Source: Natronohydrobacter sp. (GTDB lineage Bacteria > Pseudomonadota > Alphaproteobacteria > Rhodobacterales > Rhodobacteraceae). From it: a stretch of DNA of 39,199 bases. The position numbers and the translations under genes are program-made. The stretch covers positions 1-39,199 of the forward strand of contig SKIM01000024.1 in assembly GCA_007116445.1 (NCBI GenBank), in the 5' to 3' direction. Positions 6,089 to 29,389 of the stretch are shown here, one piece after another (position 1 is the first letter of the stretch; each line of letters starts with the position of its first letter). The notes under the pieces were generated by a model. That model did not search any database and was not told the DNA's origin. It saw only the letters and a list, made by a program, of their open reading frames with translations.

Positions 6089-8064
6089 TGCGCGGCCATC
6101 ATGGTCTGCGCGCCGAAGACACGCGCATCGCGGATTTCAAGCGTGGCCTTCAACTTGCCCTTGCGCCCGTCCTCATAGGTCACTTCGGTCTCGGTATAGA
6201 TCTGATCCTTGCCGCCATAGAGCGCGTCGATCAGATCGGCATATTTCTCCTCGACGATACGGCGCCGGACTTTGCGAGTGCGGGTCATCTCGCCATCATC
6301 AGCGTCCAATTCCTTGTGCAGCACCAGAAAACGGTGAATCTGACAGCCCGACAACATCGTATCCTGCGCGACACTCTCATTGACCTGTTCGACATGAGAC
6401 TGGATCGTGTCGAGCACCGGCTTCAGGCCCGCCAACTCCTGATAGCTGGAATAGGCGATATTGTTACGCTCGGCCCAGGAGCCGACGGCACCAAGGTCGA
6501 TATTGATGAAGGCCACGCAGCGTTCGCGATTGTTGCCAAAGACCACCGCTTCCAGGATATTGGGAAAGAATTTCAGCTTGTTTTCGACATATTTGGGCGC
6601 GAACATGCAACCATCGGCCATTTTGCCGACATCCTTGGCGCGGTCGATGATGCGCAGATGGCCGGTCGCTTCCTCGAAGAAGCCTGCATCGCCCGTGGCC
6701 ACCCAGCCTTCGGCATCCTTGGTTGAGGCGGTGCTCTCAGCATTCTTGTAATATTCAACAAATGTGCCGGGCGAACGGTAGAACACTTCTCCGCTCTCGG
6801 CGATCCGCACTTCAACCCCCGGCGAGGGCACGCCGACCGTATCCGAGCGCACTTCGCCATCGGGTTGCTGCGTGATGAACACACCTGCTTCTGTCTGGCC
6901 ATAGAGCTGCTTGAGGTTGATCCCGAGCGAGCGGTAAAAATCAAAGATCTCCGGCCCGATCGCCTCGCCCGCCGTATAGGCGACTCGGATCCGGCGCAGC
7001 CCGAGCGTGTCTTTCAACGGGCCGTAAACCAGCAGATTGCCTAGGCCGTATTTTAGCCGCGCACCCACGCTCACAGGCTTGCCGTCCAGAAGCTTCGGCC
7101 CCACGTCGCGCGCGAAGCCCATGAAATGATGGAACAACTTGCGCTTGAGCGGCGAGGCATCCTCCATTCGGATCATGACCGTGGTCAACATTGTCTCGAA
7201 GATCCGGGGCGGCGCGAAGTAATAGGTCGGCCCGATTTCGCGCAGATCCGTCAGCATGGTCTGGGCCGATTCCGGGCAATTCACACAAAACCCCGTCCAA
7301 TAGGCCTGCCCGATGGCGAAGATGAAGTCCCCGACCCAGGCCATTGGCAGATATGCCAGAATTTCATCACCAGGTCGCAGATTGTCGAATTCGGAGGAAT
7401 TCTTCGAGGTCACGATGATGTTGCGATTGCTCAGCACCACCCCCTTGGGTTTACCGGTCGTGCCCGAGGTGTAGAGCATGACACAGGTATGATCGAGCGT
7501 GAGCCGCGCCATGCGCTGGTCCAGCTCCGCGCCCAGTCGCGTTTCCGCCGCACGCCCTTCGCGCATGACGTCCTCAAGCCAGTTCATATGGCTGTGGTCG
7601 TATTTGCGCATGCCGCGCTTGTCGAGATAGGCGATCTCCTCGATACAGGTCACGGTTTCCTGCACTTCGAGCACCTTGTCGACCTGTTCCTGATCACCGC
7701 AGACGACAAAACGCGCGCCGCAATGCTCGAGCACATAGGCCATCTCTTCGGCCACTGCGTCCTGGTAGAGCGGCACAGGGATCGCGCCCACCGATTGCGC
7801 CGCAACCATCGCCCAGTAGAGCGCCGGTCGATTGCGACCGATGATGGCAACAAAATCGCCTTCGCGCATACCAAGGACCAGAAACCCCAGCGCCATGGCG
7901 CGAACCTCGGCCTGCGTCTCGGCCCAGGTCCAGCTTTGCCAGATACCGAATTCCTTTTCGCGATAAGCCGTCTGCATTCCAAAGCGCTTGGCGTTACGCG
8001 CCAGCAGCGCAGGAACGGAACGCAACTCTGCCAATGCGGCGTCGGCATCAACCGTGGCTGTCAC
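6085..8064 (-). CDS. Long-chain acyl-CoA synthetase (AMP-binding family)
   Basis: AMP-binding signature YTSGTTGKPKG, YGQTE, TGDAG, IIDRAKD. GTG start after RBS GAGGGAGGAG. Confidence 0.93.
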   Translation of the reverse strand: MTATVDADAALAELRSVPALLARNAKRFGMQTAYREKEFGIWQSWTWAETQAEVRAMALGFLVLGMREGDFVAIIGRNRPALYWAMVAAQSVGAIPVPLYQDAVAEEMAYVLEHCGARFVVCGDQEQVDKVLEVQETVTCIEEIAYLDKRGMRKYDHSHMNWLEDVMREGRAAETRLGAELDQRMARLTLDHTCVMLYTSGTTGKPKGVVLSNRNIIVTSKNSSEFDNLRPGDEILAYLPMAWVGDFIFAIGQAYWTGFCVNCPESAQTMLTDLREIGPTYYFAPPRIFETMLTTVMIRMEDASPLKRKLFHHFMGFARDVGPKLLDGKPVSVGARLKYGLGNLLVYGPLKDTLGLRRIRVAYTAGEAIGPEIFDFYRSLGINLKQLYGQTEAGVFITQQPDGEVRSDTVGVPSPGVEVRIAESGEVFYRSPGTFVEYYKNAESTASTKDAEGWVATGDAGFFEEATGHLRIIDRAKDVGKMADGCMFAPKYVENKLKFFPNILEAVVFGNNRERCVAFINIDLGAVGSWAERNNIAYSSYQELAGLKPVLDTIQSHVEQVNESVAQDTMLSGCQIHRFLVLHKELDADDGEMTRTRKVRRRIVEEKYADLIDALYGGKDQIYTETEVTYEDGRKGKLKATLEIRDARVFGAQTMMAAQ

Positions 8065-8259: not shown

Positions 8260-10185
8260 ATGCCCTCGCCGGATGATACGCATATCAAGCTGATGAGCGC
8301 CGGGTTGAACATGATTCAGCAGGCGCTGTCGATCTTTGACCGCGATCTGCGCCTGTCTGTCAGCAATCGGCGCTATCAGACCATGTTCGACCTGCCCGAC
8401 TGGCTGGTTCAACCCGGCGCGGAGTTCGAGGACACGATTCGCTATCTGGTGACACGCGGCGAATATGGCGCGGTCGAGGATATCGAGGACGCCGTGCGCA
8501 TTCGTGTCGAAGCCGCCCGCGCCTTCGTTCCGCATTACATGGAGCGCGAGCGCGCGAACGGCCGCTGGATCAGCGTCGAGGGCGCGCCACTGCCGCAGGG
8601 GGGCTGGGTGACGGTCTATACCGACATCACCGAAGTGAAGCTGCAAGAGCGGCTTTTGCAGGCCCATTCCGAAGAACTTTCCGGCGCGCTGATTGCCCAT
8701 GCAGAGCGTCTTGCCCAAACCAATCGCGAATTGGCGGCCTCAAATGCTGCGCTGGAAGAGGCCAAGCGCGAACTGACCGAGATGGAAGCCCGCACCCGCC
8801 TGACGACCGAGATGATGCCTGCGCATATCGCACGGCTGGACTGCGAGCTGCGCTATACTTTTTCAAACCGGCGGCTCTCGTCGGTTTTTCCCGGTCGGCC
8901 GCGGAATATCGTGGGGCTGCCTGCGCGCGACGCGCTTGGAACGGTTTTTCCAACGATCCGGCCATGGCTGGAAAACGCGCTTGCAGGTCAGGCTTCGGTG
9001 CATGAATTCACCCATGAAGACAGTGGGCGGCGCATCCGGCTGGCGCTGACCCCCGACCGGATGGATGACGGACCGATCAACGGCATCTATGTCATGTCGA
9101 TGGATGTAACCGAGGAAGCTCAGGCCCGCGCCGCACTTGCGCAGACGCGCAAACGCGAACTCGCCGCCCAGCTTTCCTCAGGGCTGGCGCATGATTTCGG
9201 TAATCTGCTGACCATCATCCTTGGTCTTCAAGGTCAGCTTGCCCGACGCGGCGATCTGCCCGAAGACGTCGCTCAAAGCGTGCAATCCACCATCGCCGCC
9301 GCACGGCGCGGGGGCGTGCTCTTGGAAAGGATCGCCGCGATTTCGGGCACGCGCGCATTGCGGCCACAACCGACGGACCTGCAGGCGCTTTTGCGCGATC
9401 TGCAACAGATGGCGCGACCGACCCTGCCCGAGAATGTCGCGCTTCTGATCGACTTGCCCGAGGCGCTACCGCTTCTTGCTCTCGATCAAGGCATTTTGCA
9501 GGACAGTCTTCTGAACCTGATCCTGAATGCGCGCGACGCGCTGGCCGATACTGGCGGCACGATCACATTGCGAGCGCAAGTCTATGGTGACACATGGCTT
9601 GACCTGATTGTCAGTGATACCGGGACCGGTTTCAGCCCCGAAGCGCTGGAGAAAGCGCTGAACCCGTTTTTCACCACCAAAGGCGCTGCCGGGTCCGGGC
9701 TGGGGCTGGCGATGGTCTATGATCAGATCACCCTCTCGGGCGGACGGGTGCGGCTGGCCAATCGTGCCAGCGGCGGGGCCGAGGTGACCTTGCGCCTGCC
9801 CTTCCGCCATGTCGACACCACGCCCGGAACAGAGCCTGCGCTGGTGCTGCTGGTCGAAGACACGGATACGATCCGCGAAAACGTGCGCGATATGCTCTGT
9901 GAGTTGGGACATTCCGTGATCGAAGCGGCCAGCCATGACGAAGCGCTCTCGTTGCTCGATCTTGCGGGCCTGTCGCTGGTCCTGTCGGATATCAACCTTG
10001 CAGGCGACGGGTCCGGCCTCGATCTGCTGCGCGCTTGCCGCGCGCGGGGGATGACGCGGTTGCATCTGATGACCGCCCTGCCCCCGTCTGACCCGCTGCA
10101 TCGCAAGGCCCGCACCGAATTCCCCGTTCTTTCCAAACCCTTCACTCTGGCCGATTTGCGCCTAGCCCTGGAGCATGCTGCATGA
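8260..10185 (+). CDS. PAS-domain hybrid sensor histidine kinase (PAS-PAS-HisKA-HATPase-REC)
   Basis: H-box GLAHDFGNLL, N-box LNLILNARDA, G1 DTGTG, F-box PFFTTK, G2 GSGLGL. Receiver LLVED...LSDINL...KPF. No obvious transmembrane helix. Confidence 0.92.
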   Translation: MPSPDDTHIKLMSAGLNMIQQALSIFDRDLRLSVSNRRYQTMFDLPDWLVQPGAEFEDTIRYLVTRGEYGAVEDIEDAVRIRVEAARAFVPHYMERERANGRWISVEGAPLPQGGWVTVYTDITEVKLQERLLQAHSEELSGALIAHAERLAQTNRELAASNAALEEAKRELTEMEARTRLTTEMMPAHIARLDCELRYTFSNRRLSSVFPGRPRNIVGLPARDALGTVFPTIRPWLENALAGQASVHEFTHEDSGRRIRLALTPDRMDDGPINGIYVMSMDVTEEAQARAALAQTRKRELAAQLSSGLAHDFGNLLTIILGLQGQLARRGDLPEDVAQSVQSTIAAARRGGVLLERIAAISGTRALRPQPTDLQALLRDLQQMARPTLPENVALLIDLPEALPLLALDQGILQDSLLNLILNARDALADTGGTITLRAQVYGDTWLDLIVSDTGTGFSPEALEKALNPFFTTKGAAGSGLGLAMVYDQITLSGGRVRLANRASGGAEVTLRLPFRHVDTTPGTEPALVLLVEDTDTIRENVRDMLCELGHSVIEAASHDEALSLLDLAGLSLVLSDINLAGDGSGLDLLRACRARGMTRLHLMTALPPSDPLHRKARTEFPVLSKPFTLADLRLALEHAA

Positions 10186-25982: not shown

Positions 25983-27932
25983 TCACGCCCGCTGATCTGG
26001 AGGCGTTGCTTCACGGGCAAGCACCTGCAGCAGATCGTCGAGCGCTTCAGTCGATGTGCGGTTCTCGCCCAGACGCCGGACGGACACTGTGCGCTCAGCA
26101 ACTTCACGCGCTCCGATGGCCAGGATCACCGGCACCTTTCGCAGACTGTGATCGCGCACCTTATAGTTGATTTTCTCGTTGCGCAAATCCAGCTCTGCCC
26201 GAATTCCCGCGCCTTGCAGGGCCGCCACCACCTCGCGGCAATAGTCATCTGCATCCGAGATGATCGAGGCCACGACGATCTGACGCGGGGCCAGCCAGAA
26301 CGGCAACTTACCCGCATGTTCCTCGATCAGGATGCCGATGAAGCGCTCGAAACTTCCCAGCACAGCCCGATGCAGCATCACGGGACGATGTTTGGCACCA
26401 TCCGCACCGATATAGGTCGCGTCCAACCGCTCGGGCAGCACGAAATCAACCTGCAGCGTCCCGCATTGCCAGTCGCGCCCGATCGCATCGGTCAGCACGA
26501 ACTCAAGCTTTGGACCGTAAAACGCCCCTTCACCGGGGTTTTCCTCATACGCGTAACCCGCCGCCTCGGTAGCCGCGCGCAAGGCGTTCTCGGATTTGTC
26601 CCAGACCTCATCCGCGCCCGCGCGTGTCTCCGGTCGGTCGGAGAATTTCACGCGGAACTTCTCAAAGCCCAGATCGTGGTAGATGCTGGACAGAAACTCG
26701 ATGAAACGCTTCGTCTCGGCCTCAATCTGATCCTCGGTGCAAAAGATATGCGCGTCGTCCTGTGTGAAGCCGCGCACGCGCATGATCCCGTGCAGCGCGC
26801 CAGAGGGCTCATAGCGGTTGCACGATCCGAACTCGGCCATGCGCAGCGGCAGGTCACGGTAGCTTTTCAACCCCACGTTGAAAATCTGCACATGGCAGGG
26901 ACAATTCATCGGCTTGAGCGCATTGATCGCCTTTTCGCGGGCATGCTCCTCGTCGACTTCGACGATGAACATGTTTTCCTGATACTTCTCCCAATGTCCC
27001 GAGGCTTCCCAGAGCTTGCGGTCCACCACCTGCGGCGTGTTCACTTCGACATAGCCACCGCGCCGTTGCTGGCGGCGCATGTAATCCTGCAAGTTGGTAT
27101 AGATCGACCAGCCATTGGGATGCCAGAACACCTGCCCCGGTGCTTCCTCTTGCATGTGGAACAGGTCCATCTCACGCCCGAGCTTGCGATGGTCGCGCTT
27201 TGCCGCCTCCTCCAGCATCGTCAGATGCGCTTTCAGATCCTCGCGGTTGCGGAAGGCGACACCATAGATGCGCTGCAACATGGGCCGCGTGTTGTCGCCC
27301 AGCCAATAGGCGCCCGCAATCGACATTAGCTTGAACGCATCAGCTGGCACCTGCCCGGTGCTTTGCAGATGCGGACCACGGCAGAGATCCTGCCAGTCGC
27401 CATGCCAATACATCCGCAACGGCTCGCCTTCGGGGATGCGGTCGATCAGTTCCAGCTTGAAGGGCTCGCCCGCGTCCTTGTAATGCTGGATCGCGCGGTC
27501 GCGCTCCCAGACCTCTGTGCGCACCGGCTCGCGGGCATTGATGATCTGGCGCATGCGCTCCTCGATCTGCGCAAGATCCTCGGGCACAAAAGGCTCGGCG
27601 CGGTCGAAGTCGTAAAACCAGCCCTTGTCACGCACAGGGCCAATGGTGACCTTCACATCGGGCCAGATCTCCTGCACGGCGCGCGCCATGATATGCGCAA
27701 GATCATGGCGGATCAGCTCCAGCGCGGGCACATCATCCTTCATCGTATGGATGGCAATGGTGCCATCGGTCGTGATCGGCCATTGCAGATCCCAATGCGC
27801 ACCATTGACGCTCGCGGAAATCGCGCGTTTGGCGAGGGACGGCGCGATGCTCTCGGCGACTTGCGCAGGCGTCACGCCCGCCTCATAGTCGCGCACGGAG
27901 CCATCGGGAAATGTCAGGGAAATCTGGGCCAT
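25983..27932 (-). CDS. thrS: Threonine--tRNA ligase
   Basis: TGS domain, editing-domain RHDLAH and [49 protein letters not shown]. Start [11 protein letters not shown] at 27932 after GAGGA. Confidence 0.98.
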
Positions 27933-27952
27933 CGGCCGGTCCTCGTCGTTTT

Positions 27953-27979
27953 GGCGCCCACGGAACGCCCGGTTGCGGG
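27953..27979 (-). promoter_or_regulatory. thrS 5' leader stem-loop(s), candidate tRNA-Thr anticodon-arm mimic
   Basis: Minus strand CCCGCAACCG-GGCGT-TC-CGT-GG-GCGCC, 8 nt upstream of the GAGGA RBS. Confidence 0.55.
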
Positions 27980-27992
27980 TTATGTCGGCGCT

Positions 27993-28022
27993 GTTAATCG
28001 CGGGCTGGGGAACCAAAGTCAA
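27993..28022 (-). promoter_or_regulatory. Putative sigma70 promoter of thrS
   Basis: TTGACT (-35, 28022-28017) followed after about 17-18 nt by GATTAAC. Confidence 0.45.
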
Positions 28023-28069: not shown

Positions 28070-29389
28070 GTGTCCACGCCCCACCGAACCGCCGTTGCAC
28101 AGGCCTTTGCCGCGCTCAGCTCGGACGATGATGGCCGGTCCTGCCGCGATATTTCCGAGACTGCGTGCAACGCGCAGCCGCAGAATTTCCTGCGCCATGC
28201 CGGCGCGCTTGGGCTGAGCAAATCGGCGGACGGTCTGGTGGATCCCAAACTGGTGCTGTCCTGGCTGATGACACATCTGGGCGCGCCTGCTGCCCTGATC
28301 GGGCTGCTGGTCCCGATCCGTGAGGCGGGCGCATTGCTACCGCAGCTTTTCACCGCCGCCCGTATCCGCGCGCTTGCGCAGCGCAAATGGGCATGGGGCG
28401 TTGCAGCCTTCGGGCAGGGTTTGGGTGCTGCGATCATCCTTGCGGCAGCGCTGGCGCTTGAAGGGGCGCTCGCGGGCAGTGTGATCCTTGCGGGGCTGGC
28501 GGTTCTGGCGGTGTCACGCTCAGTCGCGTCAGTGGCCTACAAGGACGTGCTCGGCAAGACCATCGACAAAGGCCAGCGCGGGACTGTGACCGGGCTCGCG
28601 GGCAGCTGGTCGGCCGTTGTCGTCATCGCCTTCGCATTGACGCTGATTTTCTTCTCCGAGGCCCGCGCCCTGATCGTGGCCGGCGCCCTGGCCCTCGCGG
28701 CCCTGGCCTGGTTGGTTGCAGGGGGGGTGTTCATCGGGCTGGCCGAAGACAAAGGCGCGACCGAGGGCGGGGCAAATGGGGTCACCGATGCGATCGCCAA
28801 TCTGCATTACCTGCGCGAAGACTCGCAACTGGCGCGCTTCATCCTCGCACGCGGGCTGCTGACGGCGACAGCGCTCGCGCCGCCCTATCTGGTGATGCTC
28901 GCCTCTGGCGGTCCCGGTGCCGCGCTGGAAAGTCTGGGCGCGCTGGTGCTGGCCTCGGCGCTCGCAGCACTCTTGTCCAGCTATATCTGGGGCCGGCTTG
29001 CAGATCGCTCCTCGCGCCGGGTCTTGATCCTGACAGGGCTGAGCGGTGCAGCCGCACTGGTGATGACGCTGGTTTTCGCAGCGCTCGGCTGGTCGAACTC
29101 GCCTATCGCGATGCCGCTTGCCTTGTTTCTGCTGATGGTCGCGCATCAGGGCGTGCGGCTGGGCCGGTCAACATATCTGGTGGATATGGTTGGCCCCGAC
29201 CTGCGCGCGGTCTATACCGCGATTGCGAATACAGTAATTGGCGTCATCCTGCTCGCGAGCGGCATCTTCGGCGCGCTCGCGGCGCTGGCGGGGGCCGCAA
29301 CAGCGATTGGACTTTTTGCGGTGATGGCAGCGGCAGGGGCCTATGTGGCCTATGGATTGAAGGAATTGGGCGATGGCTCAGACGATTGA
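28070..29389 (+). CDS. MFS transporter
   Basis: About 12 hydrophobic helices and motif A-like [15 protein letters not shown] start at 28070 follows AAGGAG; the ORF-track ATG at 28052 is the alternative. Confidence 0.85.

Follow-up and report, generated by a model that had tools for sequence, protein, structure and literature searches.

A conserved thrS leader element with an anticodon-like loop is a likely operator for threonyl-tRNA synthetase autorepression in most Rhodobacteraceae

Results

The thrS leader contains a hairpin with an anticodon-like loop

The window analysed here, the whole 39,199-nucleotide stretch of Natronohydrobacter sp. contig SKIM01000024.1, carries the thrS gene on its minus strand together with the leader features listed in Table 1. 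The deduced threonyl-tRNA synthetase (ThrRS) shared 49% identity with that of E. coli across 638 amino acids and its matches in the PDB were ThrRS entries, including 1QF6 and 1KOG. Since the next long open reading frame downstream is convergent, thrS is likely to be monocistronic. The start codon was placed at the ATG at position 27932 of the minus strand, from which the alignments with orthologues begin; on the same alignments a start at the GTG at 28100, which offers only an in-frame extension, was rejected.

The original prediction for this DNA had described a leader consisting of TTGACT, a 5-bp stem topped by a 7-nt loop with CGU at its centre, an 8-nt gap, GAGGA and the ATG. All of these letters were confirmed. 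The GAGGA at 27940 to 27944 is taken here to act as the thrS Shine-Dalgarno (SD) sequence.

Table 1. Positions of thrS and of the observed and predicted leader features in the window
Feature	Position	Strand	Remarks
thrS, threonyl-tRNA synthetase	25983..27932	-	649 aa, N-terminal domain present
Leader element, 39 nt	27979-27941	-	Apical hairpin, internal loop and lower stem
Apical hairpin, 5-bp stem and 7-nt anticodon-like loop	27953..27969	-	Strands 27969-27965 and 27957-27953
7-nt loop	27964-27958	-	CGU at 27962-27960
Putative anticodon mimic C34-G35-U36	27960..27962	-	G35 is 29 nt 5' of the ATG
Internal loop (5x5), 5' side	27970..27974	-	Columns invariant or near-invariant in alignments A1 and A2
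Internal loop, 3' side, A-rich	27948..27952	-	Alignments A1 and A2
Lower stem, 5' strand	27975..27979	-	Also the 5' arm of the proposed second hairpin; from RNAalifold and pair counts
Lower stem, 3' strand	27941..27947	-	Two bulged A residues; overlaps the first four SD bases
Shine-Dalgarno sequence GAGGA	27940..27944	-	8 nt 3' of the apical stem; kept across the family
-35 region TTGACT	28017..28022	-	TTGAC conserved upstream of the element
-10 region GATTAA	27994..27999	-	17-bp spacer; lacks -7T; -11 slot is A in 97% of loci (n = 187)
Predicted +1	27985..27987	-	From promoter spacing; leader of about 53-55 nt

When the thrS leader was folded alone, no unusual stability was found by single-sequence folding (z-scores of +0.2 to +1.4), and the structure obtained was a CGU triloop of -9.6 kcal/mol. 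Among 3699 sites in the genome that resemble an SD sequence followed by an ATG, 120 had a 5-bp hairpin with a 7-nt loop just upstream and two, thrS among them, had such a loop centred on NGU, by criteria that were chosen after the element had been seen. Searches against Rfam gave no match for the window at the gathering score and none for the leader at E values of up to 5. On the plus strand, a hairpin that resembles a terminator and has a T run spans the thrS start at window positions 27926-27942; 0.3 such sites were expected by chance in the region.

A conserved promoter precedes the element

Of the 189 distinct loci, 187 had the sequence TTGAC in the 75 nt that precede the element, and the distance was 39-51 nt in 186. 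A scan for promoters of the E. coli consensus type found none in the thrS leader of the window, a failure that is explained by the lack of -7T in the -10 region. The combination of a strong -35 with a -10 that lacks -7T was a trait of the thrS promoter throughout the family. About 7 nt separate the predicted +1 from the element, and conservation ends there.

Published data on Rhodobacter sphaeroides provided a comparison. A supplementary table lists a single start site for thrS (RSP_0385), at 2116944, with a -10 region lacking -7T (PMC8407463), and a second lists the gene start at 2117001 and the start site as intergenic and sigma-bound (PMC12976309, supplementary table). These published positions correspond to a leader of 57 nt, the start site not having been placed on a named R. 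sphaeroides sequence. Across the family G35 lay 26-34 nt before the start codon; the whole element therefore falls within 53 nt and would be held by a 57-nt leader. The location of the hairpin inside the leader, with the start site upstream, was consequently in agreement with both the conserved promoter and the published R. sphaeroides leader, the +1 of the window itself being a prediction. The contigs of one related metatranscriptome that cover the region derive from relatives and are uninformative about the start site, and there was no thrS entry in the supplements of PMC7703639. Expression of thrS in R. sphaeroides was down-regulated by novobiocin (logFC -2.9; PMC12976309 table), which suggests that a transcriptional layer of control acts as well.

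Distribution of the element

To survey the family, thrS upstream regions were gathered by protein search, without use of the motif, and were then searched with a pattern in which the flanks and stem were fixed and the 6-11 inner bases were left free. The element was found in 194 of 206 loci from the family and the order; some genomes had been entered twice, so that 189 of these loci were distinct. The 12 loci in which pattern search and subsequent inspection revealed no element comprised eight from the Rhodobacteraceae and all four from the sister family. Named carriers include Roseinatronobacter, Paracoccus, Thioclava, Celeribacter, Tabrizicola, Roseovarius and Marivivens.

A covariance model of the element matched 138 of 150 other Rhodobacteraceae genomes, with one genome taken per genus; two of the 12 genomes without a match also had no thrS match in the protein search. 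There was one match per genome except in genome G056, where each of the two thrS copies (L169 and L170) had its own intact element. The single match in the host genome lay before thrS, and all 20 of the weak new matches were located directly before this gene. In the other alphaproteobacterial families, one of 119 genomes was matched, marginally and away from thrS, under stricter filters that divergent look-alikes could escape. This tally counts an unpublished genome (G092) as one row, and no claim depends on it. The marginal match, in genome G146 (E = 0.03), was on a different contig from the thrS of that genome and was attributed to chance, and weak matches elsewhere in the window (8873-8910, E = 0.9; 6246-6289, E = 2.2) were dismissed because they lacked the hairpin.

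Both the identity and the orientation of the gene upstream of the element varied. The cluster to which the neighbour in the window belongs was common to 35 of 133 loci in a six-frame clustering that is rough because antisense frames were included.

In a tree of 81 ThrS sequences rooted on E. coli, the 39 element-bearing sequences grouped in a single 40-tip clade (support 0.84), which was nested among alphaproteobacterial ThrS sequences from loci without the element. The simplest reading of this tree would be a single gain of the element, early in the history of the core Rhodobacteraceae. One ThrS inside the clade (L076/L240, genome G016) had a leader without the element, an apparent loss. In one family member that branches deeply and does not have the element (L164/L241, genome G020), the leader had an unrelated 7-bp hairpin some 20-50 nt before thrS, the 12-nt loop of which contains CCGUAA and may be a separate anticodon mimic. 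Short hairpins with CGU loops were also seen before thrS in two other alphaproteobacterial families (L032 in G134 and L042 in G175); these were below the model threshold and possibly due to chance.

Conservation of the anticodon-like loop

The bases G35 and U36 were present in all 194 leaders, even though the loop had been unconstrained in the pattern. At position 34 all four bases occurred (C in 173 leaders, A in 10, U in 6 and G in 5), position 37 was G in 124, A in 63, U in 5 and C in 2, and position 33 was C in 131, U in 60 and G in 3; the loop had 8 nt in eight loci. When changes were reconstructed by parsimony on a 138-tip ThrS tree, there were none at positions 35, 36 and 38, 12 at position 34, 22 at position 33 and 26 at position 37. 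An invariant NGU loop among orthologues, which had been set as a test of the original prediction, was thus observed. Fixed G35 and U36 beside a free position 34 are the pattern expected if the loop is read by an enzyme responsible for the whole set of ACN codons, and according to PMC4756836 the contacts of ThrRS with the anticodon are specific at positions 2 and 3. Several bases of the internal loop were invariant as well, so that invariance by itself does not single out the anticodon. Position 38 was an invariant G in the element and is A in the tRNA-Thr(GGU), tRNA-Thr(CGU) and tRNA-Thr(UGU) of the host genome, a result at odds with a simple copy of the tRNA. Two of these genes, tRNA-Thr(GGU) and tRNA-Thr(CGU), were each found twice by ARAGORN as identical copies at contig ends, which are likely to be assembly breaks or integration sites.

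It had been cautioned that the loop might instead close to a CGU triloop. Positions 33 and 37 did covary, between C-G and U-A, with 34 joint changes on the 138-tip tree compared with 48 if each is counted separately, which suggests that an NGU triloop is often formed when the loop is free. Of the 76 distinct element variants, 33 had U-A at these positions, 20 had C-G, seven had a wobble pair and 16 were unable to pair. Partial pairing of 33 with 37 was therefore accepted, an obligatory triloop was rejected and mimicry was not refuted. Since the tRNA-Thr genes of the host share the complementarity of U33 and A37, such pairing is no argument against mimicry.

Conservation of the stems and alternative folds

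Two alignments were examined: A1, made up of the 76 distinct element variants, and A2, made up of 20 divergent sequences that were the lowest-scoring new model matches and had been outside model building. Selection of the A2 sequences by the covariance model biases them towards the structure and loop already known. The apical stem was paired in 379 of 380 cells in A1 and in 100 of 100 in A2. Double changes from G-C to A-U or U-A were found at pairs 1 and 2 (L163/L204 and L233, with a new one, L269, in A2), and pair 5 took the forms U-G, C-G and U-A, of which U-G was the commonest (55 of 76 variants). The apical stem thus showed compensatory changes, a feature for which the original prediction had proposed a test. 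The element was 85% identical across variants, with the result that independent compensatory events were few, and related sequences are not independent of one another. In the 760 stem cells there were 69 G-U and four A-C combinations, an imbalance that points to an RNA function on the mRNA strand.

Beyond the 5x5 internal loop, three pairs of a lower stem were predicted by RNAalifold, unprompted. The five pairs of this stem were 96% paired in A1; in A2, 73% of cells could pair in a fixed register, the bulges being mobile. Double changes were seen at three pairs in each alignment. The 3' strand takes in four of the SD bases. In a permutation test on A2, duplexes between each sequence and its own partner were better than permuted ones (83 of 5000 permutations were as good), and the corresponding test on A1 gave no signal (4174 of 5000). 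The lower helix adds about -2.8 kcal/mol beyond the apical stem, and in five of the 20 divergent leaders (L261, L264, L265, L266 and L272) there was almost no lower-stem duplex. Taken together, the alignments lend moderate support to a lower stem in which the 5' flank would pair with the SD region; the covariation between these two segments is weaker than that of the apical stem.

A second, smaller hairpin had also been proposed, overlapping the 5' side of the first and able to compete with it. Across 185 leaders, the median pair probabilities were 0.51 for the apical stem, 0.29 for this 5' hairpin and 0.10 for the lower stem, and in the window the 5' hairpin was predicted at 0.53 compared with 0.30 for the anticodon stem. 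As a competing fold it is therefore possible. As a conserved structure it was rejected, since there was no double change in it among the 76 sequences of A1 or the 20 of A2, in which it was 80% paired, and its 5' strand covaries with the SD region instead.

Conservation of ThrRS residues

Residues N575, K577, I578, R583, E600 and R609 (E. coli numbering) were kept in all 39 element-bearing ThrS sequences. K577, I578, E600 and R609 are presumably anticodon-reading residues of ThrRS. PMC4756836, in the part cited, lists N575 and R583 among the residues that contact the loop. The anticodon-binding residues were also kept in ThrS sequences from loci without the element and hence do not discriminate between the two groups. 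The loop-contacting residues at which the element-bearing enzymes differ from that of E. coli were D549, replaced by S in 38 of 39, and R589, replaced by K in 38 of 39; both replacements are common in other alphaproteobacteria. E. coli positions 37, 44, 102, 131 and 223, together with the column of the N-terminal Met, separated element-bearing ThrS sequences from those of other alphaproteobacteria, a difference that may only reflect the clade.

Some E. coli genomes have a second thrS-like gene; in the example L160 (NZ_CP061108.1, 1946803-1948761) it is followed by genes for an M14 metallopeptidase and a dihydroorotase. Up to two places per genome were counted, with 20 places on plasmids. The second gene branched apart from K-12 thrS and had no match to the model.

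Discussion

The ability of a synthetase to repress its own translation by way of an anticodon mimic is textbook knowledge, established in E. coli. The comparative data suggest that the thrS leader element is likely to be a translational operator in most Rhodobacteraceae, by which ThrRS would repress its own synthesis through a predicted anticodon mimic. Since the predicted loop displays the two anticodon letters that ThrRS reads, the enzyme is likely to bind its own mRNA and to shut off its own synthesis. Autorepression by ThrRS is considered highly probable overall, whether it is achieved by covering of the SD sequence or by a steric or decay route, and participation of the SD-covering stem is considered probable.

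In the proposed mechanism, spare ThrRS that is not occupied by tRNA-Thr would dock on the NGU loop by means of its anticodon-binding domain. The free leader is predicted to be metastable, as judged from the pair probabilities of the apical and lower stems (0.51 and 0.10), which would leave the SD sequence mostly open. Binding of ThrRS would then stabilise the extended stem-loop, so that the weak lower helix would cover four SD bases, and the bound enzyme may also obstruct the 30S subunit. Competition by tRNA-Thr for the enzyme would relieve the repression, and the supply of ThrRS would in this way be matched to demand.

In the most closely related alternative, ThrRS would still bind the loop, but repression would come solely from keeping out the 30S subunit sterically, as in E. 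coli, or from triggering mRNA decay. The lower stem would then be incidental or serve as a scaffold, and the open leader at rest may take the form of the 5' hairpin. The lower stem is indeed worth only about -2.8 kcal/mol, has a median pair probability of 0.10 and is nearly absent from five of 20 divergent leaders, and the 5' hairpin is thermodynamically competitive (median of 0.29, and 0.53 in the window). In E. coli, repression needs a clash between the N-terminal domain and the 30S platform, according to the passage cited from PMC7373986. However, an incidental lower stem is at odds with the double changes at three of its pairs in both A1 and A2, and a resting role for the 5' hairpin is not what would be expected of a structure in which none of 76 or 20 sequences has a double change and which is 80% paired in the divergent set. 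Repression exclusively by this route is unlikely. It is quite unlikely that the element is a genuine RNA structure with a partner other than ThrRS, acting for example to stabilise the 5' end, as a standby site for ribosomes or as the target of another RNA-binding protein or nuclease, with the GU as a structural feature or a foreign contact. Such a role would account for the position of the element, which begins about 7 nt after the predicted +1, and for the invariance of G38 and the internal loop, which are not tRNA-like; the covariation of 33 with 37 as a pair would fit a compact triloop. Against this, the element was found only before thrS, a triloop is impossible in 16 of 76 variants, and the free N34, the fixed G35 and U36 and the distance to the start codon all match the E. 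coli thrS operator.

A function in DNA was also considered, either as an imperfect palindrome downstream of the promoter to which a transcription factor binds or as a promoter element of a divergent upstream gene. The element would lie at about +8 to +46, the usual position for a repressor, and mirrored changes can also be produced by a dimeric protein. This explanation is nevertheless very improbable, given the strand-specific excess of G-U over A-C cells (69 to 4), the predominance of U-G as the closing pair (55 of 76), the absence of a second site from the genome in the model search, and the varying identity and orientation of the upstream gene.

ThrRS autorepression is thus the preferred reading. 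No description of the element in alphaproteobacterial thrS was found in the literature covered, which took in few subscription journals, and mention in a motif catalogue or in a 2002 operator list is possible. If the reading is correct, autorepression by anticodon mimicry extends to a large and ecologically important family that includes the roseobacters, Paracoccus and their relatives. The element is 39 nt long, has natural compensatory variants and occurs in a family with genetically tractable species, so that it lends itself to direct tests of two points: whether a dimeric synthetase can be controlled through a single anticodon mimic, and how many times such regulation has emerged. It could also readily serve as the basis of a new RNA family model.

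Synthetase expression is coupled to the state of the cognate tRNA in other systems as well. T-box riboswitches and leader-peptide attenuators do so by displaying a codon or a run of codons in long leaders that mostly contain terminators. A T-box was rejected for the thrS leader, which is only about 55 nt long and had no Rfam match at either threshold, and a leader-peptide attenuator was rejected since the predicted leader has no AUG and there was no terminator-like site on the minus strand. In yeast, anticodon mimics are reported in the mRNAs of AspRS and HisRS, with RPC10 as a target of ThrRS; there a synthetase binds an mRNA through an element that resembles an anticodon loop (PMC9976931; see also PMC6542539 and PMC9956033). 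The contact between synthetase and mRNA through an anticodon-like loop is the feature shared with the proposal made here; the yeast systems differ in being eukaryotic, in lacking an SD sequence and in having elements that are not homologous.

The closest parallel is the E. coli thrS operator. According to the cited passages it mediates autorepression by ThrRS and contains a pair of anticodon-like hairpins, and its ribosome-binding site is split and unpaired (PMC11088916, PMC9976931, PMC7373986, PMC3858243). For domain 2, PDB entry 1KOG lists the ThrRS core. Domain 2 of that operator and the Rhodobacteraceae element are both located in the 5' leader of thrS, and each consists of a stem-loop adjoining the SD sequence, with a U-G closing pair and a 7-nt loop that is centred on CGU and follows the pattern Y-Y-C-G-U-R. 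The distance from G35 to the start codon is 32 nt in domain 2 and 26-34 nt in the element, and the enzymes have in common their architecture, including the N-terminal domain, and the main anticodon-reading residues. There are also clear differences. Only one anticodon hairpin is found in the Rhodobacteraceae, compared with two in E. coli; there was one model match per thrS, and with only about 7 nt of leader before the element no equivalent of domain 4, the hairpin that serves the other subunit of the dimer in E. coli, was detected in the leader. The leader of about 55 nt lacks the upstream single-stranded ribosome-binding segment of E. coli, and its SD sequence is partly within the lower stem, whereas that of E. 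coli is described as unpaired in the cited part of PMC3858243. Unlike domain 2, the element has a 5-bp stem followed by a 5x5 internal loop; position 38 is an invariant G rather than U, and thrS is not linked to infC.

The element model gave no match to domain 2 of E. coli K-12, as may happen with short RNAs, which lose detectable homology quickly. The nesting of the element-bearing ThrS clade among sequences without the element, in a tree rooted on E. coli, favours a separate origin, and the element is likely to have arisen independently of the E. coli operator. It would then be apparently convergent with a simpler design, in which one hairpin is combined with direct occlusion of the SD sequence. 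A more detailed version of this idea is put forward tentatively: the Rhodobacteraceae may have evolved independently a minimal operator of one hairpin, in which ThrRS would clamp a weak helix over the SD sequence, the invariant G38 and the internal loop would replace the second hairpin of E. coli, and the other subunit of the dimer would remain available for sensing tRNA-Thr or for a second mRNA. By analogy, the element would function like E. coli domain 2 but without the second hairpin and the split unpaired site, and is best described as a variant of that system rather than a member of it.
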